From a virus (Duplodnaviria; Heunggongvirae; Uroviricota; Caudoviricetes): a DNA stretch of 12,123 bases. This document shows positions 1 through 9,070 of the stretch, in pieces; the stretch's first letter is position 1; each line of letters opens with the position of its first letter. Where the stretch lies: positions 1 to 12,123 of IMG/VR virus record IMGVR_UViG_2778261276_000001; one strand, given 5' to 3'. The notes under the pieces are model-generated. The model had not been told where the DNA came from. It worked only from the letters and a program-made list of their open reading frames with translations, and did not search any database. Both the position numbers and the translations under genes were made by a program.

Positions 1-401
1 GCACTACCTTGCAGCCTACTCCCGACACCAAAATTTCCCTTATGTAAAACGTCTGATAAACCAAGGTTTTCGAGAGCTGTTTTCACCGTGCCATCCGATT
101 TGATATCACCAAACGGATTCTTGCGGCTCAGGTATTCAACAGCAAACCCCGATCCCAGCAATTCAACAAAACCGGGCAGATCACCATTATCAAGCACATC
201 CCGTTGCGTTTTGTCACTTACAAACTGGGCCAGAGCTGCAGCAATAAAGCTGGCCTGCCGAATAACCTTATTGACTTGCGCACTGGATGCTTTCCCTGCT
301 GTAAATCCGGATAAAAGCGCAGGCAACGCTTCCCATTCCTCCTGCGACATAACATTGGCATTCCGATCAGTTGCAAACGCTTTAAAGTCATTTTTCGCCA
401 T
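1..401 (-). CDS. Tail fibre protein, N-terminal part (gene runs off the window start); start codon at 401..399
   Basis: Minus-strand ORF open to position 1; ATG overlaps the stop of the upstream gene (TGATG); translation [33 protein letters not shown]... resembles a phage side tail fibre N-terminus; position right after the gpI-like gene matches Mu/P2 baseplate-fibre order. Not listed in the ORF track because it is partial. Confidence 0.55.
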
Positions 402-1081
402 CAGAGTAATACTCCCCATGCCCCTACATCAAAACCACTGATGAATTCGTTATCCATATCAAAACCAAAAAATTTTGAACCTTCCGATGGAGTTTCCACC
501 GAAGGTGTTTCAATGCCACCCGCCCAAACCCCGGCGGCTTTTACTGTGAGATATCCCTGTTTAATTGCAGCAATTAACTCACGCGATACATCTGAAATAT
601 CAGTATCAGGAAAGAGCCAGACCGATATCGTCATGTCCTGGTTATCGACTATCTGCATTCGCAGTCCGGATCCTGCTGTCGCCGCGTCAAGAATTGCTGG
701 AAGCGAATCATTCCGTCCGTCCCAGTTATTAATCGCAATCTTCGCTTTAAGGATGACACGATAAGTTTCATCGCTGAGGTACATGTATCCGGAATCAGGA
801 TCGTATGGCCCCTGCCATACACCCTGATCATATCCAAGCCCGTCGGTATCCCAGCTGAAATAGACACCTGAGATAGGCTGGCTGACAACACGGCTACGTC
901 CGATCCACAATCCAAGAATGTCAAGTTGCACACCAACCGCAGAGTCAATATCAAATGCAGTAATCAGCCCTCTGGTGGCAGCCGCAACATCAATAAGCGG
1001 CCGGGTCATCAGATCAACATGTGCAAGAAATTTAGGTTTGGTGGCGTGGTAGTTCGTGATCAGTTCGGTGTATTTGCTCAT
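401..1081 (-). CDS. Baseplate/tail protein, P2 gpI / Mu gp48-like (YmfQ/DUF2313-like)
   Basis: 226-aa ORF, 4-nt overlap with the upstream gpJ-like gene and 1-nt overlap with the fibre gene; position between gpJ-like and fibre genes; resemblance to YmfQ-type proteins is from memory only. Confidence 0.55.
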
Positions 1082-2277
1082 GACTCCACCGTTATAACGA
1101 TATTTTCCGGTGTACAGGACGCAGATTCGTTGTATCTGATATCAATGTTTGATGACGACAAAGCCCCCGGGGATTTCCCAATCGTCAGTTCCTGAATATC
1201 GTAATAGCGTGCATTCCCGCCACTCACCACGCCAAGATTCGCCGGTGAGTAAATGCGACTTAAAAGGACCGAATCACCAATCATCAGACTATTGATATAG
1301 TCGGAAATAGCCTGCTGGATCTGCTGCCCTATCTGTGAGGTATAACCCGTAAAAACTTTTAATTTAATCCGGGCATAAACAGGTACATCACTGGAACGCG
1401 AGAATTTGATTACATGGGGATTGCCGTATTTATCCGGAACCGTAACGGATGTTGTACCGTGAGTGGCTGTCCCCTGGCCTTTATTCCCTCTGATAGCCTG
1501 AGCAATATCCGTCACATCACCGCCATCCACAATTACAGCAACAGAGTGTGGCGGTAACCCGTTACCGTCCTCCGAACCAGTATCGTTTTCATAGAGTTTG
1601 TGGCGGGTTACACCGGTAACATTAGAAACAGCACCATCCAGTGCTTCAAATGGGGTTATTGATGGCAACGCAACACTTTGCGACTGGCGGATACGTAACT
1701 CAGCATCAGTTTCTGCCGGAGAGCCAACAGTAGCCGCAGCAGGATTAGTTACCGAAACCCAGCCACGGGTTGGCGTATTAATTTCAGTGATAGTTCCAGC
1801 CAGCGCCGCCACTGCACCACTGACGGAACATGTTGCGGTCGCCATCACTGTACCATCCACGCCGACCACCACTGAAGCAGGCAAACGCCATATCACATTA
1901 TTACTGTCTTTCACGCTGCCATTAATGATGGTTGTTCCGGCAGTTCCTGTAAGAAGCAAATCAACCGTAGAGTTCGTCGCGCCTTTACGTGAAATACCAT
2001 TTATTTTCACGTTACTGGTCAGTGCAGCCCCATAGCCGGTTGCCGGTGAAAAACAGTTGTAGACAGTTATCGCCATATTATTGGCATCATGAATCGCCAG
2101 CGCCATCAGAGCCACCATCTGGCCGTCTTTGCTGTCCGGTTCGAGGTAGGCATCACTGCCATAAATCTGCTGAAAATAGCTAATCAGGGTGCTGAGTATC
2201 GTCTGATAATCAGGCGCACTGATCCCCTCCGCGGTTACCTTTGCAGATAAACCGAGAGAATCAAGGTTCAGAGCCAT
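1078..2277 (-). CDS. Baseplate J-like protein (P2 gpJ / Mu gp47 family)
   Basis: 399-aa ORF translationally coupled to its neighbours; size and position (after gpW-like, before gpI-like) fit the conserved V-W-J-I baseplate order. Confidence 0.6.
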   Translation of the reverse strand: MALNLDSLGLSAKVTAEGISAPDYQTILSTLISYFQQIYGSDAYLEPDSKDGQMVALMALAIHDANNMAITVYNCFSPATGYGAALTSNVKINGISRKGATNSTVDLLLTGTAGTTIINGSVKDSNNVIWRLPASVVVGVDGTVMATATCSVSGAVAALAGTITEINTPTRGWVSVTNPAAATVGSPAETDAELRIRQSQSVALPSITPFEALDGAVSNVTGVTRHKLYENDTGSEDGNGLPPHSVAVIVDGGDVTDIAQAIRGNKGQGTATHGTTSVTVPDKYGNPHVIKFSRSSDVPVYARIKLKVFTGYTSQIGQQIQQAISDYINSLMIGDSVLLSRIYSPANLGVVSGGNARYYDIQELTIGKSPGALSSSNIDIRYNESASCTPENIVITVES

Positions 2278-2630
2278 TACGCCTCCGATGTAACAGTCGT
2301 TATTCCATAGAGAGTGTCGATTTCAGCGGAAAACATGACACGTCGGGTCGTGGTATCCACCGTCGTATTGAAAGAGAGGATTGATTTAACGCCCTGCGTT
2401 TCGAGGATGCGCTTACGGATCGCCAGGTTGTAAGTTTCTGGTTTTTGCCTGCCCAGCACGGACTGGATCCACGGTGTTCCCTCTGTGGTATCAAGAAACC
2501 ATTGCCCATACCACAATTCGAATCGCGTTTTCACAGCCTGCGCTACGGCCTCAGGCGAGTTAATCAGCCAGGTGTCATCACCGCTGCCAAAGGTGTAATC
2601 GCCATCGGCGTCTTCACGTCTGTATCGCAT
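2277..2630 (-). CDS. Baseplate wedge protein, P2 gpW / Mu gp46-like (gp25-like)
   Basis: 117-aa ORF with 1-nt overlaps to both neighbours; size and synteny between spike and J. Confidence 0.5.
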   Translation of the reverse strand: MRYRREDADGDYTFGSGDDTWLINSPEAVAQAVKTRFELWYGQWFLDTTEGTPWIQSVLGRQKPETYNLAIRKRILETQGVKSILSFNTTVDTTTRRVMFSAEIDTLYGITTVTSEA

Positions 2631-3382
2631 CAGTTTACTCCGTCGGTATTGCTTCCACCGCGCTGAACACCACCATGAGTGTGCGTATCATCGATTGGCT
2701 TGCCGTTAGCCTTCACGCTACCCAAAAACTCAACAGCACCAGTGATTTTTGAAGCCACACCAGAAACAACAGACCCCACCATGCCTCCCATCCAGGTTAA
2801 CAGGCCATGAATGGTTACTTTCTCAGAAAAATCAGCCAGAGGGGCAACCACATCAAGGCCCCCCGGAGCGACAATTTTAATTTTCCTGGTATCAGGATTA
2901 AGCTCAAAATAGGTGCTGCCGTCATCACTACGCAACTGTGTGGCACTGGTATTAATACCGCTAATCTTCCTTGCCTGCGACTGGGGACCGACAATACAAA
3001 ACGCATCCGATAAATCATGCATTCTGTCATCGACCGGCTCCTGTATCCCGCCACTCTGCCACCAGAAATCAATACAACGATCGGCAAAAATCACCAAACA
3101 TTCATCACCGGCTTTAACTGGAAACGTTAGCGTACAGCCTCCGCCACGCGGGAATACCACTGGCACATCCACCAGCAATGGGTAATTTTTGGTAATGCGG
3201 TTGCCGTCGTTATCAATTTCAACGTAACGGATAGCAGGCTGTACAACCGCCGTCACCGCATCAGGAGCGAATGACTGAACAATGCCAGGCAAGGCGACAC
3301 GGATCTGGTTCTTTGTTGTTTCCCGTTCAGATTTAAATGTTTCGGCAAGGTCGCCGCTGCGGGTCTGGTCAGATACTGCCAT
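2630..3382 (-). CDS. Baseplate spike/assembly protein, P2 gpV / Mu gp45-like
   Basis: 250-aa ORF; C-terminal ...DDTHTHGGVQRGGSNTDGVN has an HxH motif typical of spike apex domains; synteny immediately upstream of the W-J-I genes. Confidence 0.6.
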   Translation of the reverse strand: MAVSDQTRSGDLAETFKSERETTKNQIRVALPGIVQSFAPDAVTAVVQPAIRYVEIDNDGNRITKNYPLLVDVPVVFPRGGGCTLTFPVKAGDECLVIFADRCIDFWWQSGGIQEPVDDRMHDLSDAFCIVGPQSQARKISGINTSATQLRSDDGSTYFELNPDTRKIKIVAPGGLDVVAPLADFSEKVTIHGLLTWMGGMVGSVVSGVASKITGAVEFLGSVKANGKPIDDTHTHGGVQRGGSNTDGVN

Positions 3383-3401
3383 TTAGTAGGCTCCAGAAAG
3401 C

Positions 3402-3424
3402 AAAAAACCCGCCAAGTGGCGGGT
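3402..3424 (-). terminator. Rho-independent terminator between the inserted cassette and the spike gene (hairpin can form on either strand)
   Basis: GC stem CCCGCCA-agt-GGCGGG at 3408..3423; on the minus strand it is followed by a T-run (plus-strand AAAAAA at 3402..3407); lies 22 nt after the stop of the 142-aa gene. Confidence 0.6.
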
Positions 3425-3446
3425 TTGAATTTTGAGAAATTTCAGC

Positions 3447-3875
3447 TTATGCAGTTAACGAGTCATCACCAATCTTCAGTAATTGATTAACGATTGCATC
3501 GACCTCTTCCGCATCCAGAATTACACTTCTCGCGGTAATCCGGTTGATTTTCCGCTCAAGCTTGTAATCAGAATTAACACGTTGGGCATGCGTCATTTTC
3601 AGTTTAACGCCGATTTTCTTTACTGCGTTAACATCAACATCGTTAAGTGCAGCTGCCTCACCACTACAAAAGGCCGTATAGACTCGCATGTGAACTCCAC
3701 CTTTTAGTTTTTCACCATCTTGTGTAGCGGTCGGTACCAGATTGTTGGTGATCCGTAAGGCGGAATGGTACATACCATAGTATGCTCGGCTAATAGCATT
3801 TCTCGTCCACATCTCACCGTTTAGAGCCAGGGAATGCTTAGCCAATTCAAGAAAACAGGTATGCTCAACCGACAT
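3447..3875 (-). CDS. Hypothetical 142-aa protein with an R-x6-H (HEPN-like) motif; second gene of an overlapping pair
   Basis: ORF with TAATG start/stop overlap to the upstream 243-aa gene; motif NAISRAYYGMYHSAL contains R-x6-H; about 43% GC in a sampled stretch versus about 55% in the flanking tail genes. Confidence 0.7.
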   Translation of the reverse strand: MSVEHTCFLELAKHSLALNGEMWTRNAISRAYYGMYHSALRITNNLVPTATQDGEKLKGGVHMRVYTAFCSGEAAALNDVDVNAVKKIGVKLKMTHAQRVNSDYKLERKINRITARSVILDAEEVDAIVNQLLKIGDDSLTA

Positions 3876-4606
3876 TAGAGTTCCCCGGCTTCAAAGCATC
3901 CGACGCATTCTGAATCCGCAAGCCCCGCAATAATAATCTCATCAGCCAAGGCATTATTCATCTGCGAAAGAAGCACTGGATCGTCTGTTTTGACTTCAAC
4001 GAACAGCGTATCAAGTTCTGACATTACATAAAAAGCATGAGCGCCAGCAAGACGAGCGCGGTACTTTTCTGCAACGTTCATCATGAGCCGCCCAATAGTT
4101 TTTAGCTCCTGAGCATGATCTTTTTGGGTATGCAGATAATTGAGCGTGTCATACCATTTGCCCATATCTTCAGGGCGCGGTACTTCCATTGCAGTTAGCA
4201 TCGGCATCACCTTTTCAAGCAAATCGATATCAACCCAGTATGCAGAAATTGTAGCAACCTCAGCCAATATCGTTGGATTAAGTGAATCAGATGCTTTCTG
4301 AATCATCACATACTGGCGAGCATGCAAACCTAAGTTACGCAGCGCAATCGTATAGTTACAAAAAGAAACTGGATCGTTAGGCGCTATTCTCAACCCCCGC
4401 TCACAGAGTGAACATCCTTCATCTATTTCACCAAGAACAAGCTTAGCTAAGCCTTCAATTGATAGCCCCTGATAACGTTCAGGTAGTTTCTTCGCTTCAC
4501 GAATGATTCGATGGATTTCAAACTCACTCAGAAGGTTTTCACCCTTAGTTAATGAAGGAGTCAGAAGATCTAACAGTTCTCCTGATTTTGGCTGCGCTAA
4601 ACTCAT
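3875..4606 (-). CDS. Hypothetical 243-aa protein, no recognisable motif; first gene of the overlapping pair
   Basis: Long ORF with a plausible RBS (AGGA about 10 nt upstream of ATG); preceded by a 149-bp intergenic region; translationally coupled to the 142-aa gene. Confidence 0.7.
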   Translation of the reverse strand: MSLAQPKSGELLDLLTPSLTKGENLLSEFEIHRIIREAKKLPERYQGLSIEGLAKLVLGEIDEGCSLCERGLRIAPNDPVSFCNYTIALRNLGLHARQYVMIQKASDSLNPTILAEVATISAYWVDIDLLEKVMPMLTAMEVPRPEDMGKWYDTLNYLHTQKDHAQELKTIGRLMMNVAEKYRARLAGAHAFYVMSELDTLFVEVKTDDPVLLSQMNNALADEIIIAGLADSECVGCFEAGEL

Positions 4607-4691
4607 GTTTTAGTTATTCCTGGCTTTAATGAAGTAGCATATCGATGGCAATCCACCATCAAAAAGTCAGTGCAGTGTAATCGCTCGTCTC

Positions 4692-4730
4692 AAAAAACAA
4701 CAGTTTTTAGAGCACATTTTGTTGTTTTTC
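4692..4730. promoter_or_regulatory. AT-rich inverted repeat (AAAAACAACA ... TGTTGTTTTT, 17-nt spacer) in the intergenic region upstream of the 243-aa gene
   Basis: Near-perfect 10-bp inverted repeat at 4693..4702 and 4720..4729; could be an operator or a weak terminator after the secreted-protein gene. Confidence 0.35.
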
Positions 4731-4755
4731 AGGCGTTACGAATTTCAGGTTACCT

Positions 4756-5097
4756 TCACCCAGCCACTTTTTTACAAGGGAAAGATCCGATGATTTTCGG
4801 CGCATCCATGCTGTTCTGCAGAAGCTGGACATTCAGGAATCGCGTTTCGGTACCAGGGCGACGAATGTATTCAAAGCCGTAGTTGTTACCGTCTTTGGCA
4901 GGCATAAGCCCCATGTCTACTTTCAAACCATTGGTACCCAGTTCGGTGATTTTTTGAGAGGTAACTCTTTCACCGTTGATAGTCGATAACTCGCCCTGGT
5001 TTGCAACCATAGTGTAGCCACCGCATTTAACCGTGAAGCCATCCGCCCACGCGCTGCACGCAGAAAAGACAGCTAACAGAAAAATAATACCCCTCAT
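4756..5097 (-). CDS. Secreted protein with N-terminal signal peptide (possible lipoprotein), 113 aa
   Basis: N-terminus MRGIIFLLAVFSACSAWA-DGF has a hydrophobic h-region and an AxA signal-peptidase I site; the Cys in FSAC could be a non-canonical lipobox; start 3 nt after the stop of the hub-like gene. Confidence 0.65.
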   Translation of the reverse strand: MRGIIFLLAVFSACSAWADGFTVKCGGYTMVANQGELSTINGERVTSQKITELGTNGLKVDMGLMPAKDGNNYGFEYIRRPGTETRFLNVQLLQNSMDAPKIIGSFPCKKVAG

Positions 5098-5100
5098 TGC

Positions 5101-6162
5101 TCATCCCCTTTGCAAAGCCGATCGCGTATACAGATCCGCCGCGCCACGCGCTTCGCACATCATATCCATGTACCACGCCTGGCCCCTTGTGTCGCCAGTG
5201 TACATAATCCCGCGCACAATATAAACGCCATCCGTTGCGATGCTGGCAGGCTGCGATGTGGTGCCGCTTAGCGTGATATTTCCATCCGTGTTCTGGTCGG
5301 TGATCTGACCACCAGCCATCGCAATATCGTTGTTCGACAAGGCGGTACGATACACGGAAGCCTGATCCAGTTGAATGAGCCCATTAACCCGGATGTTCGG
5401 ATTAATAAGCGCGCGGACGTTTACGCCGTTGCCGATGGTCTGCTGCGGCATGCCAATAAGCCCGGTAGCGCTGTTGAGCACAATCGCTTCGTGAACATAT
5501 TCATTATTCACCACCATCTGGCGCTGACCATCCACGAATTGCCATGTTGCGCCACATTGCCCGGCTACGTTATCCATTAGATGCCGCGTCATGCCAAAGA
5601 GCACCCGCCCCCGGGGGAATACAGTAGCAGGCATTTCAGGCGTCAGGCCTTCGGTCGCACCTTTGGCTTCGAAGTCTTTCATCAGCGCACGGTTCACATC
5701 AGCGACCGTGTAACCGGCAGCCAGCGTCTGTGAGGTTATACTGGTGGCAAAAGCCAGATCAGTATCTGCTGCCTGAATCAGGACGTAGGAATCAACCGGA
5801 CTGTCTTTTCCTGTGACCGAGTAGCGAATTTCACCGCTGAAAATCAGTCCGTAGTTGCGGCCATCTCTCTGGCCCACGTCCGCCGCGTCAACTTCCCGCA
5901 CGGTCCCTACGTCGCTTGCTGACACCTCCGGCGCGATACCGTCGTAACCGGCAATCAGACGCACTTTCGAAAATTCCTGCCCGGTGATTCGGTTCACAGT
6001 ATCTGCCGAGAGGTTATAAATTTTGATAGTCCCTACCCGGGACGCGCTGCTGATGTTGAACCAGTCGATCGTAAAGGTGACTTTGAAATCACTTAGCTCA
6101 ATTCCCTGACCGTTCCCGTCCACAAGCTGCAGCTCGAAATGTCTCATCCAGTTCTGTGACAT
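5101..6162 (-). CDS. Phage tail protein, probably baseplate hub (Mu gp44 / P2 gpD-like) by position
   Basis: 353-aa ORF with GGAG RBS; first gene of the tail operon in this window; function assigned only by synteny upstream of the spike gene. Confidence 0.45.
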   Translation of the reverse strand: MSQNWMRHFELQLVDGNGQGIELSDFKVTFTIDWFNISSASRVGTIKIYNLSADTVNRITGQEFSKVRLIAGYDGIAPEVSASDVGTVREVDAADVGQRDGRNYGLIFSGEIRYSVTGKDSPVDSYVLIQAADTDLAFATSITSQTLAAGYTVADVNRALMKDFEAKGATEGLTPEMPATVFPRGRVLFGMTRHLMDNVAGQCGATWQFVDGQRQMVVNNEYVHEAIVLNSATGLIGMPQQTIGNGVNVRALINPNIRVNGLIQLDQASVYRTALSNNDIAMAGGQITDQNTDGNITLSGTTSQPASIATDGVYIVRGIMYTGDTRGQAWYMDMMCEARGAADLYTRSALQRG

Positions 6163-6164
6163 GC

Positions 6165-6371
6165 TTACTCCGTTGATACCAGTAAATGACTGAGGCCGCC
6201 CAGATCAGTTTTCGTGGGATAATCCTGTGTGTTGTCATCGCAGACCACCACCAGCTTAAAACCAAGTCCCATAACTTCTTTCCACTGAGAGACTGCTGCA
6301 TCGCTAATGCCTAGTGCTTTAGCAACAGCACGCTGGGTTCCGAAGTGGTCAATAACATCTTTTTTGTACAT
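6165..6371 (-). pseudogene. cro: Truncated/chimeric cro: the first ~33 codons match P22/phage-21-type Cro, then fused in frame to unrelated sequence
   Basis: N-terminus MYKKDVIDHFGTQRAVAKALGISDAAVSQWKEV matches P22 Cro as I recall it (61 aa); the remaining 35 residues MGLGFKLVVVCDDNTQDYPTKTDLGGLSHLLVSTE are unrelated and the ORF stops 2 nt before the tail-gene ATG. Confidence 0.65.
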
Positions 6372-6385
6372 AGACTCGCTCCGAA

Positions 6386-6403
6386 ATTAAAGAACACTTA
6401 AAT
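6386..6403. promoter_or_regulatory. Operator OR1-like (ATTAAAGAACACTTAAAT), P22/21-type half-sites
   Basis: 18-bp near-palindrome with TTAAG/CTTAA-type half-sites overlapping the pR -10; the same architecture recurs at 6434..6451 and 7202..7219. Confidence 0.55.
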
Positions 6404-6429
6404 TATCCACCAAAGGAATCTTAAGTCAA
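6402..6429 (-). promoter_or_regulatory. pR-like promoter for cro (-35 TTGACT at 6429..6424, 16-bp spacer, -10 GATAAT at 6407..6402 on the minus strand)
   Basis: Near-consensus sigma-70 hexamers with correct spacing; overlapped by an operator. Confidence 0.6.
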
Positions 6430-6433
6430 GTTT

Positions 6434-6451
6434 ATTTAAGATGTCTTAACT
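6434..6451. promoter_or_regulatory. Operator OR3-like (ATTTAAGATGTCTTAACT) abutting the repressor start codon
   Basis: TTTAAG-N4-CTTAA palindrome ending 1 nt before the cI ATG; suggests a leaderless pRM transcript as in lambda. Confidence 0.55.
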
Positions 6452-7102
6452 ATGAATACACAACTGATGGGTGAGCGTATTCGCGCTCGCAGAAAAGAAC
6501 TCAAGATTAGGCAGGCTGCCCTTGGCAAGATGGTTGGCGTGTCTAATGTTGCTATTTCCCAATGGGAGCGATCTGAAACTGAGCCCAATGGCGAAAACCT
6601 ATTGGCCTTAGCCAAGGCTTTGCAGTGCTCCCCTGATTACCTGTTGAAAGGAGAGGATAGTCTTTCAAACATTGCCTATCACAGCAGGCATGATCCAAGA
6701 GGTTCGTATCCTCTAATTAGTTGGGTAAGCGCAGGATGTTGGATGGAAGCTGTAGAGCCATATCATAGGCGTGCAATAGATAACTGGTACGACACAACGG
6801 TAGATTGTTCTGAAGACTCTTTTTGGCTCGACGTTAAAGGCGATTCAATGACTGCCCCGGCAGGACTGAGTATTCCTGAGGGGATGATTATTCTCGTCGA
6901 CCCAGAAGTCGAACCACGTAATGGAAAGCTGGTAGTCGCCAAACTTGAAGGAGAAAACGAGGCGACATTCAAAAAGTTAGTTATTGATGCCGGTAGAAAA
7001 TTCCTGAAACCACTCAATCCACAATACCCAATGATTGAAATCAATGGGAACTGTAAAATCATTGGCGTTGTCGTTGATGCCAAGCTAGCAAACCTTCCTT
7101 AA
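6452..7102 (+). CDS. cI: Repressor, P22 C2 / phage 21 cI type (HTH plus S24 LexA-like autopeptidase domain)
   Basis: 216-aa protein MNTQLMGERIRARRKELKIRQAALGKMVGVSNVAISQWERSETEPNGENLLALAKALQCSPDYLL... is near-identical to P22 C2 repressor as I recall it; C-terminal GDSM (Ser nucleophile) and a conserved Lys; divergent from cro across the operator region. Confidence 0.93.
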   Translation: MNTQLMGERIRARRKELKIRQAALGKMVGVSNVAISQWERSETEPNGENLLALAKALQCSPDYLLKGEDSLSNIAYHSRHDPRGSYPLISWVSAGCWMEAVEPYHRRAIDNWYDTTVDCSEDSFWLDVKGDSMTAPAGLSIPEGMIILVDPEVEPRNGKLVVAKLEGENEATFKKLVIDAGRKFLKPLNPQYPMIEINGNCKIIGVVVDAKLANLP

Positions 7103-7124
7103 GGGGCTTTCGCCCCTTTTTTAT
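7102..7124 (+). terminator. Rho-independent terminator after the repressor gene
   Basis: AGGGGC-tttc-GCCCCT hairpin directly after the stop, followed by TTTTTTATTT. Confidence 0.8.
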
Positions 7125-7191
7125 TTCCCGTTAAAAATCAAAGACAAACTAAATTCACGCCCATAAAATTAAGTTTTCTTCAAAAATGCAC

Positions 7192-7220
7192 TTGACCAAT
7201 AAATTAAGAAGTCTTAAATT
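7192..7220 (+). promoter_or_regulatory. pL-like promoter (-35 TTGACC 7192..7197, 17-bp spacer, -10 TAAATT 7215..7220) with the OL1-like operator AATTAAGAAGTCTTAAAT (7202..7219) in the spacer
   Basis: Consensus-like -35, correct spacing, and an operator palindrome of the same family as the OR sites. Confidence 0.6.
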
Positions 7221-7266
7221 TAAGCCATCAGCAGGACGCTGGAAGCCAAACGGAACAGATTGGCAG

Positions 7267-7306
7267 GCTCTTTAACATCGACGGACTCTCAACCTAACCG
7301 TTGAGA
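7267..7306 (+). promoter_or_regulatory. nutL site: boxA (GCTCTTTAACAT, 7267..7278) and boxB hairpin (TCTCAAC-CTAACC-GTTGAGA, 7287..7306) of phage-21 type
   Basis: boxA matches the CGCTCTT(T)A consensus; the 7-bp stem and CUAACC hexaloop match the phi21 boxB as I recall it; located between pL and N. Confidence 0.75.
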
Positions 7307-7416
7307 CCAGAACTTGAGTGGTTTTGGGGATGGCGCGAATTGCAGCTGCAAGACAGCGATCGAGAAGATAAGCACCTCGACGCGTCATGCGCCAAAGCCA
7401 CTTAAAGGAGACCATC

Positions 7417-7722
7417 ATGGTAACCATTGTCTGGAAAGAATCCAAAGGTACGGCAAAAAGCCGCTACAAAGCTCGCAGAGCAGAACTTATTGCCGAGCGA
7501 CGCAGTAATGAAGCACTGGCGCGAAAAATTGCGCTAAAGCTCTCTGGTTGCGTCAGAGCAGACAAAGCAGCATCACTAGGAAGCCTTTGCTGCAAGAAGA
7601 AAGAAGAAGTCGTTCGAAAAAATAGAAGTATTTATTACAAAGATTCAAACCCGTTAGGAAACAAAATACATGCAGTCCAAAAAATAAAATTGTACAGTAA
7701 ACTACCGTACGGTGCTTATTGA
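7417..7722 (+). CDS. N: Antitermination protein N, phage-21 type
   Basis: AAGGAG RBS before the ATG at 7417; N-terminal arginine-rich motif GTAKSRYKARRAELIAERR matches the phi21 N ARM as I recall it; downstream of nutL. Confidence 0.8.
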   Translation: MVTIVWKESKGTAKSRYKARRAELIAERRSNEALARKIALKLSGCVRADKAASLGSLCCKKKEEVVRKNRSIYYKDSNPLGNKIHAVQKIKLYSKLPYGAY

Positions 7723-7730
7723 GTATGCTT

Positions 7731-8063
7731 ATGGTGAAAAAGACTATTTATGTTAATCCTGACCGCGGACAAAACAGAAAAGTATCTGATAGAGGTCTTA
7801 CATCTCGAGACAGGAGGAGAATAGCGAGATGGGAAAAAAGGATAGCATATGCATTAAAAAACGGTGTAACACCTGGATTTAATGCTATAGATGACGGTCC
7901 TGAATATAAGATTAATGAAGAACCAATGGACAAAGTTGACAAAGCATTAGCAACACCATTTCCTCGCGATGTCGAAAAAATTGAAGATGAAAAATATGAG
8001 GATGTAATGCACAGAGTTGTTAATCACGCTCACCAACGAAATCCAAATAAAAAATGGTCATAG
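7731..8063 (+). CDS. nun: Transcription termination/exclusion factor Nun (HK022-type); the exact start is uncertain (ATG 7725, ATG 7731 or GTG 7734)
   Basis: Contains the ARM SRDRRRIARWEKRIAYALKNGV and the C-terminus ...HAHQRNPNKKWS with the penultimate Trp characteristic of HK022 Nun; overlaps the N stop codon. Confidence 0.85.
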   Translation: MVKKTIYVNPDRGQNRKVSDRGLTSRDRRRIARWEKRIAYALKNGVTPGFNAIDDGPEYKINEEPMDKVDKALATPFPRDVEKIEDEKYEDVMHRVVNHAHQRNPNKKWS

Positions 8064-8085
8064 CCCACTTCGGTGGGTTTTTTAT
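8064..8085 (+). terminator. Rho-independent terminator after nun
   Basis: CCCAC-ttcg-GTGGG hairpin followed by TTTTTTATT immediately after the nun stop. Confidence 0.75.
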
Positions 8086-8202
8086 TGTCTGAACAAATCT
8101 AATTTACTACCGCAAGCCACGCAGTGAAATGAGGGTTACCTGCTCAGGCCGCCAGAAGCAACGCGGAAAATCAATTCCAGCTTATTACGATTGAGGTGAG
8201 CC

Positions 8203-8340
8203 ATGCTCAAGAAAGTCAAACGCCGACTTTACAAAGAAGGTAGATATTCATGCCAGTTGCCAAAATGCGACACAACAAAATGGAGTGTCGATGACTGGTG
8301 TAACTGGATAGATAGATACGGAACTTGGTGGGATAAATAA
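8203..8340 (+). CDS. Small hypothetical protein (45 aa, basic N-terminus, Cys/Trp-rich) at the position of lambda sieB
   Basis: ATG preceded by GAGGTGA RBS; MLKKVKRRLYKEGRYSCQLPKCDTTKWSVDDWCNWIDRYGTWWDK; below the ORF-track size cut-off; leader sequence repeated upstream of two other ORFs. Confidence 0.4.
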   Translation: MLKKVKRRLYKEGRYSCQLPKCDTTKWSVDDWCNWIDRYGTWWDK

Positions 8341-8394: not shown

Positions 8395-8481
8395 ATGGAA
8401 GAAGAATTTGAAGAGTTCGAAGAGCATCCTCAGGATGTGATGGAACAATACCAGGACTATCCGTATGACTACGACTATTGA
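8395..8481 (+). CDS. orf28: orf28-like small acidic protein (28 aa)
   Basis: GAGGTGA RBS; MEEEFEEFEEHPQDVMEQYQDYPYDYDY; length 28 aa and a 17-nt overlap with the ral start match the lambda orf28/ral arrangement as I recall it. Confidence 0.55.
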   Translation: MEEEFEEFEEHPQDVMEQYQDYPYDYDY

Positions 8482-8562
8482 TAAAAATCAATGGTGTGGA
8501 CAATACGAACGACGACAATGATTGCCAGAGAACTTGGTAAACAGAACTACAAGGCTGCCTGA
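8465..8562 (+). pseudogene. ral: ral (restriction alleviation) with an internal ~103-bp frameshifting deletion
   Basis: N-terminus MTTTIDKNQWCGQ matches lambda Ral and stops after 18 codons (8465..8521); the Ral C-terminus MIARELGKQN.KAA is encoded in another frame at 8518..8562; junction at a CAAT microhomology. Confidence 0.6.
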
Positions 8563-8620: not shown

Positions 8621-9070
8621 ATGGAAGAACAAGCAAACAAGATTCTCGTAGAACTACTGCAAAAAGCCAGCAATGGAATAGATGCTGCTGTTTCATTTAG
8701 CCAAGCACAGATTCCTGATGTTGTTCATCAGTTGCTGCTATGGAATATGGTTGACAGTCTGATTAAAACATTAATAGCCATTCTAACAATCCCACTGGTT
8801 TTCTGGTTTATGAAGAAGCAGTGCCAAAGAGTTGAGACAGGTAAAATCGGTGATGAAGGATACTCATGGGAGAGGGGAAATCCCAAATACAGGCCGACAA
8901 TGGTTTGGGATAGCAAAGGAGATATTAACCTTCTTATCATGCCATTGGTTGGAGTTTTGACTCTGTGGGGGATTTTTATTATTGGTGTAGTAACCAATAT
9001 GACTTGGTTAAAAATTTGGCTGGCCCCAAAACTTTACCTTATCGAATATGCAGCATCATTGGTTAAGTAA
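8621..9070 (+). CDS. Hypothetical inner-membrane protein (149 aa, two predicted TM helices) inserted between ral and ea10
   Basis: Hydrophobic segments LIKTLIAILTIPLVFWFM and INLLIMPLVGVLTLWGIFIIGVV; AAGGTGA RBS; about 700 bp separates ral' and ea10 here versus about 180 bp in lambda as I recall it. Confidence 0.75.
   Translation: MEEQANKILVELLQKASNGIDAAVSFSQAQIPDVVHQLLLWNMVDSLIKTLIAILTIPLVFWFMKKQCQRVETGKIGDEGYSWERGNPKYRPTMVWDSKGDINLLIMPLVGVLTLWGIFIIGVVTNMTWLKIWLAPKLYLIEYAASLVK

Follow-up and report, generated by a model that had tools for sequence, protein, structure and literature searches.

The window analysed in this study is a stretch of 12,123 nucleotides from the IMG/VR virus record IMGVR_UViG_2778261276_000001. 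Most probably it holds the early-left control region of a lambdoid prophage of immunity type 21, with a nun moron at the end of the antitermination gene N and with Nun excluding lambda-type phages. The N-nun arrangement is already known and annotated in GenBank, and it is not a discovery. Little is changed for the mechanism: Nun, phage 21 N and the nun promoter have all been characterised. The value of the locus lies in its context. In nature, nun is found mostly together with an N gene, including in the Stx1 prophages of enterohaemorrhagic strains, and the textbook layout of HK022 is the exception.

Features of the window

The window, read from left to right, runs opposite to the lambda map. 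The features are listed below with the evidence for each.

1-6162, minus strand: Mu/P2-like baseplate genes
6271-6371, minus strand: 5' part of cro, ~33 codons, fused to the 3' end of a baseplate-plug gene (junction ~6271-6273)
6452-7102, plus strand: cI repressor of immunity type 21, HTH plus S24 peptidase (Pfam HTH_3, Peptidase_S24)
7103-7126, plus strand: intrinsic terminator after cI (same as the terminator annotated in OL657228; terminator scan)
7138-7155, 7167-7184 and 7202-7219, plus strand: operators OL3, OL2 and OL1, respectively (identical to annotated phage 21 features)
7192-7197 (TTGACC) and 7215-7220 (TAAATT), start at 7227, plus strand: promoter PL (phage 21 identity; promoter scan)
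7267-7274, plus strand: boxA of nutL, GCTCTTTA (same as boxA-L of OL657228)
7287-7306, plus strand: boxB hairpin of nutL, TCTCAACCTAACCGTTGAGA (same as the nutL stem-loop of OL657228)
7417-7722, plus strand: N antiterminator, 101 aa (match of the arginine-rich motif, phage 21 alignment, PHROG 271)
7605-8080, plus strand: segment common to HK022 (96.8% identity, pairwise BLAST)
7670-7675 (-35, ATGCAG) and 7693-7698 (-10, TACAGT), plus strand: nun promoter, PNun (identity with the annotation of MH547045)
7731-8063, plus strand: nun, transcription arrest/termination factor, 110 codons (alternative ATG at 7725)
8062-8087, plus strand: intrinsic terminator after nun, AGCCCACTTCGGTGGGTT followed by a T run (terminator scan)
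8102-8194, plus strand: orphan second N 3' end (allele B, Sf6 type), IYYRKPRSEMRVTCSGRQKQRGKSIPAYYD and stop, located after the nun terminator

The control region is of the phage 21 type

By BLAST, positions 6271-7639 of the window are 98.9% identical to phage 21 at the DNA level. The terminator after cI, the operators OL3, OL2 and OL1, the PL start, boxA, boxB and the ribosome-binding site of N (AGGAG, 7406-7410, the same bases as annotated for phage 21) agree base for base with the phage 21 record OL657228. The boxB hairpin folds into a 7-bp stem with a 6-nt CUAACC loop. The original prediction, which was made from the sequence without database searches, had placed N downstream of a boxB of this type and a terminator 3' of cI. 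The identity with OL657228 confirms both, and the terminator was also recovered by the scan. The operators, PL, boxA, boxB, the ribosome-binding site and N residues 1-57 make up the likeness to phage 21. The difference is that phage 21 carries another C-terminal allele of N and has ral directly after N, without nun.

Residues 8-29 of N (ESKGTAKSRYKARRAELIAERR) are identical at 22 of 22 positions to the phage 21 N peptide of PDB 1NYB, which was solved with its cognate boxB. This supports the claim that the first gene is a phi21-type N with the phi21 arginine-rich motif (ARM). PHROG 271, 'anti-termination protein N-like', matches the protein with E = 4.6e-31, and 100% DNA identity suggests that the protein is RefSeq WP_000256573.1. 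The overall identity to phage 21 N is 80%. Residues 1-57 are identical and the remainder is divergent, with few mismatches up to 7588 and many from 7600 on; the part after residue 57 can still be aligned with phage 21 N (IYY, QKIKLxSK). The 3' part is a different N allele, here called A, which is known upstream of nun in HK022 as a relic. Judged by these alignments, N is a mosaic of phage 21 N and a second allele, and not a pure phage 21 N. The N allele of the window is also found in plaque-forming phages, and a related form is present in the full-length N of a Logan contig (L013, described below). The C-terminal third of N is unlike that of phage 21 N, and N is presumed to be fully active because phages with the same allele are viable.

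The second gene encodes an HK022-type Nun

Nun of the window is identical to chain N of PDB 6ALG, a structure of Nun on an elongation complex, at 107 of 109 residues (E = 8e-71) and is 98.2% identical to HK022 Nun. The ARM equals the Nun peptide of PDB 1HJI, a complex with lambda boxB, at all 26 of 26 positions. The C-terminus reads ...HAHQRNPNKKWS, and the last 40 residues are identical to 6ALG. The two substitutions, S to R near the N-terminus and D to E in the middle of the protein, both lie outside the ARM and the C-terminal tail. The C-terminal residues that contact the polymerase are H93, R94, N97, H98, H100, R102, K106, K107 and W108 (PMC5386594), and all of them are unchanged in the window. 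The second gene had been predicted to be an HK022-type nun on account of its ARM and C-terminal tryptophan; the ARM and the C-terminal His/Lys/Trp are indeed unchanged. Comparison of both proteins by BLAST, which had been proposed as a check, gave these results for N (ARM as in 1NYB) and for Nun alike. The protein was named by PHROGs only (PHROG 5632, E = 8.5e-71), and no model recognising Nun was found in Pfam or PADLOC.

An overlap between nun and the stop codon of N had also been claimed. This was not substantiated: the overlap comes only from TTG 7719, which is the start of the mechanical open reading frame and overlaps the N stop at 7720-7722. The nun starts annotated in HK022 correspond to ATG 7725 (X16093, MH547045) or ATG 7731 (AF069308). 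ATG 7731 lies 8 nt past the N stop, and this start fits because the literature numbering of Nun gives 109 residues.

A birth of nun by duplication of N is not supported, as BLASTP of N versus Nun gave no match.

The nun promoter and terminator

The reference for the promoter was the record of phage O276 (MH547045; HK022 immunity region), in which the -35 and -10 are annotated as features of a 'nun gene promoter'. This record came from the R. A. King laboratory, as acknowledged in PMC6256539. The spacer in the window is 17 bp, the same length as in MH547045, and the promoter falls inside N codons 85-94. Over the 130 bp before nun, the window and HK022 show three base differences, none of which is in the promoter hexamers. 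A consensus promoter scan missed the nun promoter, which is a weak match to the consensus; the assignment rests on homology because a generic scan does not detect it. The hairpin of the nun terminator is kept in HK022 with compensating changes.

These elements bear on the expression of nun in the repressed state, which the original prediction had called open. A separate nun promoter is needed because a terminator follows cI, and this part of the earlier argument stands. The question itself is probably answered by an annotated nun promoter that is conserved inside the 3' end of N. In HK022, King, Madsen and Weisberg (2000) reportedly mapped a constitutive promoter just 5' of nun, and they are said to have expected nun transcripts to end just past nun. 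By analogy with HK022, nun in the repressed prophage would be transcribed from the promoter inside N. The level of Nun in HK022 lysogens has been estimated at ~100 nM (PMC5386594).

Comparison with HK022 and history of the junctions

The segment shared with HK022 covers nun with its promoter and terminator as well as N codons ~64-101. At about 7590-7612 the sequence changes from phage-21-like to HK022-like, which marks the crossover. In HK022 (locus L003, AF069308), positions 2381-2506 correspond to window positions 7605-7724 and contain a relic of the last ~38 N codons directly upstream of nun. The relic reads EVVRKNRSIYCKDSNPLGNKIHAVQKIKLYSKLPYGAYW, and 37 of its 38 residues are the same as residues 64-101 of the window N. 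It is without the 5' part of N, and its stop has changed from TGA to TGG. The annotated nun promoter sits within this relic, and HK022 may have kept the relic because it carries the promoter. The stretch upstream of nun in HK022 is now explained concretely, as an N relic holding the promoter. The earlier statement that HK022 has no N is correct in that no functional N is present, but the last ~38 codons are retained.

The likeness to HK022 includes a 98% identical Nun, identical promoter hexamers and an equivalent terminator. In HK022, Nun is made from the repressed prophage and excludes lambda. The difference is that HK022 has putL in place of nutL and the 5' two-thirds of N. HK022 is shielded from Nun by put, whereas the window element would be shielded by a nut of other specificity; polymerase modified by put resists Nun and reads through Nun-dependent termination (PMC8632103). 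No put sequence was found in the window, and no Rfam family matched between cI and nun. The locus is not of the HK022 genome type because it is without put and has an intact N and a phage 21 nutL.

A second N 3' end is found after the nun terminator. This orphan end is 82% identical to codons 72-90 of phage 21 N. Together with the next gene, a DUF5484 gene at 8203-8340, it matches the 3' end of intact N and the DUF5484 gene of Sf6, SfI and N7 at ~96-97% identity. Sf6 and SfI represent the empty site, with the same N end and DUF5484 gene (Sf6 gene 36) and no nun cassette. The N of Sf6 has a lambda-type ARM, unlike the window N. The cassette is made up of nun, its promoter and terminator, and the 3' end of N allele A; it lies between two unlike N 3' ends. 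A single illegitimate crossover, with one parent carrying N(A)-nun and the other N(B), would be enough for this layout. A 9-bp target duplication (ATTTATTAC at 7630 and ATTTACTAC at 8102) was also considered and was rejected, because the two copies simply correspond to the conserved IYY codons in each N allele.

Like other morons, nun has its own promoter and terminator, and in HK022 it is expressed from the prophage. The cassette is absent at the homologous site of phage 21 and Sf6, which qualifies it as a moron. It differs in that the nun promoter lies within the coding sequence of the preceding essential regulator and not in an intergenic spacer.

Occurrence of the N-nun arrangement

Among isolated phages, mEp235 (JQ182731) contains the 7100-8110 stretch at 99.6% identity, and mEpX1 (JQ182727) contains the same nutL-N-nun-terminator module at 99.2% identity. 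Both have been annotated since 2012 with an 'antitermination protein N' and then a 'transcription termination factor Nun'. The arrangement is also present in PDP110P1, Kapi1, PA28 and eleven Stx1a-converting phages; in the Stx1a phages the module is ~90% identical. Phages mEp235, mEpX1, Kapi1, PA28 and the Stx1a phages are complete, with cro, nutR, replication and late genes, whereas the window element is without them. PA28 (locus L011, 1194-1839) and the Stx1a phages have lost the stop codon of N, so that the annotated N is 11 codons longer and overlaps the nun start. The GenBank record of PA28 calls only a 45-aa nun fragment, and the nun promoter hexamers are conserved in this phage.

Among bacterial genomes, E. 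coli F829 matches the 7100-8110 segment at 100% identity, and many complete genomes match it at 99.6% or more. The nun cassette was found in 221 of 5426 complete E. coli genomes (~4%), and it is kept at an identity of at least 99% in 155 complete E. coli genomes. A phage-21-like nutL-N lies upstream in 212 of the 221, counted as the genomes with at least 80% of the 7100-8110 stretch, a coverage that requires a phage-21-like nutL and N 5' part. Because nun mostly occurs with N in complete E. coli genomes, the N-less phages HK022 and HK75 with their put elements are a minority. The cluster of the exact Nun protein has 556 member sequences, which come from 860 contigs. The RefSeq labels for the products of N and nun are 'hypothetical protein' or 'transcriptional regulator'. 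A full-text literature search found no paper discussing the N-nun tandem, Nun homologues or the N relic of HK022. Reviews of 2014 and 2015 describe Nun as an HK022 protein without other known function.

Proposed mechanism and alternative explanations

On induction, transcripts from PL would carry the boxA and boxB of the phage 21 type. N would bind through its phage 21 ARM and would let RNA polymerase read through terminators, including the terminator after nun. In the repressed prophage, PL would be off and the cI transcript would end at its own terminator; nun would be transcribed from the constitutive promoter in the last N codons, ending at the terminator just past nun. The low level of Nun would then bind the lambda-type boxB RNA of superinfecting phages through the ARM, and the C-terminal His/Lys/Trp tail would arrest the RNA polymerase of these phages, leading to exclusion. 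The resident element would be spared because its nut is of the phage 21 type, without a lambda-type boxB. The activity of the promoter, the exclusion of lambda and the lack of action on phage 21 nut are expected here from the work on HK022.

A lambda-type boxB, which would make Nun self-targeting, was looked for in the window and in 40 kb of the intact E. coli WAT prophage, and none turned up in either. Robert et al. (1987) reportedly found that Nun acts on lambda nut and not on the nut of phage 21 or P22. The viability of mEp235 and mEpX1 is consistent with Nun ignoring phage 21 nut. These phages form plaques while carrying the module, so the N-nun arrangement is compatible with growth. The element had been proposed to keep its own N/nut specificity while carrying Nun; the same module in mEp235 and mEpX1 and the finding of neither a lambda-type boxB nor put agree with this, as do the unlike ARMs in the nine other N/Nun-like pairs described below. 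A plating comparison of lambda with lambda-imm21, which had been suggested for this locus, would be confounded by the imm21 repressor that the locus itself encodes, with operators identical to those of phage 21.

Three other explanations were weighed. The nun gene could be an inert passenger, intact but not expressed or active, so that the locus gives imm21 immunity only. A promoter that is weak by consensus, two amino-acid differences from HK022 Nun, the RefSeq label 'hypothetical protein' for both genes, and a prophage that appears to be decaying, with cro truncated and ral internally deleted, would all fit such a passenger. However, the promoter hexamers, the ARM and the C-terminal tail are unchanged, and the exact protein recurs in the 556-member cluster on 860 contigs and the cassette at 99% or more in the 155 complete genomes, which makes an inert nun unlikely. 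Regulation of the resident phage by Nun, for example by tempering the PL operon or by competing with N, either besides or instead of exclusion, is very unlikely. Such a role could be expected from the position of nun directly behind N in the PL operon, which would give a high level on induction, and from the arrest of polymerase by overproduced Nun without any nut (PMC4496710). The strict N/Nun-like tandem in a diverse family, described below, could also reflect functional coupling. Against this role, reviews report that HK022 nun mutants show normal lytic growth and lysogenisation, the ARMs of N and Nun are unlike in every pair, and N and Nun are without sequence similarity.

The juxtaposition of N and nun could finally be an assembly or chimera artefact of the window. 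A separate junction of the window, between cro and the baseplate genes at ~6273, has no counterpart among the complete E. coli genomes and GTDB representatives, which lends this idea some ground. The N-nun segment 7100-8110 itself recurs with 100% identity in E. coli F829 and with 99.6% or more in many complete genomes, and isolated phages carry it as well. This recurrence refutes an artefact at the N-nun junction, and we give the idea practically no credence. An immunity-21 control region with a nun moron that excludes lambda-type phages is the explanation that we retain.

A family of Nun-like proteins linked to N

A profile of Nun and its 60-66% identical relatives found only 16 clusters among 1.84 billion representative proteins. 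All of the Nun-like clusters keep the C-terminal pattern ..M.[RK]VVNHAHQR.P.KKW, and their ARMs differ widely. Gene context was examined for P0021, P0022, P0025, P0027, P0028, P0031, Hafnia phage Pocitis76 and PA28. In each of these contexts the Nun-like gene is directly after an N gene, with gaps of -26 to 91 nt. In Pocitis76, a second Nun-like paralogue is 377 nt downstream. The two ARMs were never alike in nine other N/Nun-like pairs. In L019, for example, a P22-type N is followed by a Nun-like protein with the ARM TSRGRRRLKRKALQIK. In Pocitis76 (L009, 2240-3180), N is followed by two Nun-like genes, and one of their ARMs is nearly identical to that of lambda N (MDAQARRREKRKAKQEEWKK) and the other is different (SKGRRRLRRLEAARAVE). 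Both Nun-like proteins of Pocitis76 end in ..VVNHA.QRN...KW.

Two exceptions, a Citrobacter braakii contig and the Logan contig L013, have a putL-like element before the Nun-like gene or genes, and an N relic or N gene after. In the Citrobacter braakii contig (L012, MTJW01000031, 400-1060), the putL-like element is followed by a Nun homologue with 65% identity. Directly after it, a 45-aa open reading frame is the relic of an N 3' end (RKNHRTWYKDANPFGNKIHAVQKSRGKSTPLI), and this order is the reverse of that in HK022. In the Logan contig (L013, ERR3406188, 2654-4440), two Nun-like genes come after the putL-like element. The first has an ARM of the HK022 type, and the ARM of the second is phage-21-like (NSKNRRYKERGELIAKRK). 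Beyond a terminator there is then a full N whose ARM is of the lambda type (MDAQARRRERRAEKQAEWKAAN). To have a Nun directed at lambda boxB beside a lambda-type N looks self-defeating.

Nun-like genes nearly always directly follow an N with an unlike ARM, which supports the tandem as the usual state and HK022 as derived. It seems rather likely that Nun is the founder of a small N-linked family of exclusion factors, with an arrest tail and interchangeable ARMs, in which each prophage attacks rivals of other nut types, and that the N-nun tandem is ancestral and HK022 derived. The Nun-like proteins with other ARMs are candidate exclusion factors of other specificities.

Two further sequences were observed. 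One is P0002 (E. coli, 119 aa), a variant of Nun in which 7 residues of the ARM are duplicated (RIARWEKRIARWEK). PHROG 12139, a family of 289 residues with no assigned function, matches the last 29 residues of Nun with its C-terminus (E = 2.5e-4).

State of the prophage and other genes of the window

Homology to phage 21 and E. coli prophages begins at 6271. At this point cro is cut at codon ~33 and joined to the baseplate-plug gene, and a mechanical open reading frame (6165-6371) spans the fusion. The intact prophage of E. coli WAT has the same N-nun and baseplate modules, with ~21.8 kb between cro and the baseplate-plug gene. As cro is joined to the baseplate-plug gene, nutR, cII, O, P, Q, the lysis and head genes and part of the tail genes are missing from the window. 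The deleted site includes the cognate nutR of the phage 21 type. With nutR and all late genes gone, little is left in the window for N to control. The cro/baseplate junction was absent from the 5426 complete E. coli genomes and from the GTDB species representatives. Two origins come into question, a deletion specific to the strain or a join made in assembly. The prophage appears defective. If the deletion is real, the defective prophage would presumably still give imm21 immunity and Nun exclusion.

After the orphan N end, the gene order is the DUF5484 gene, ral, a 149-aa membrane open reading frame, ea10/DUF2528, gam, bet and exo. The ral gene (8465-8521) has an internal deletion of ~100 nt between short repeats and now reads MTTTIDKNQWCGQYERRQ and stop; E. 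coli F829 and phage 21 have an intact ral of 59-66 aa. Between ral and ea10, positions 8621-9070 encode a predicted membrane protein of 149 aa, which matches PHROG 3054 and gave no match in Pfam or PADLOC. Phage 21 is without any gene at this position. The 149-aa gene may be another moron or exclusion gene.

Three genes without an assigned function lie inside the baseplate module on the minus strand (3447-4606 and 4756-5097), and all of them are also present in the WAT prophage. The 142-aa protein has a faint HEPN-like match in PADLOC (E = 0.009), and the adjoining 243-aa protein gave no match in Pfam or PADLOC. These two genes could form an accessory or defence cassette. The third protein, of 113 aa, has an apparently hydrophobic N-terminus as judged by eye.
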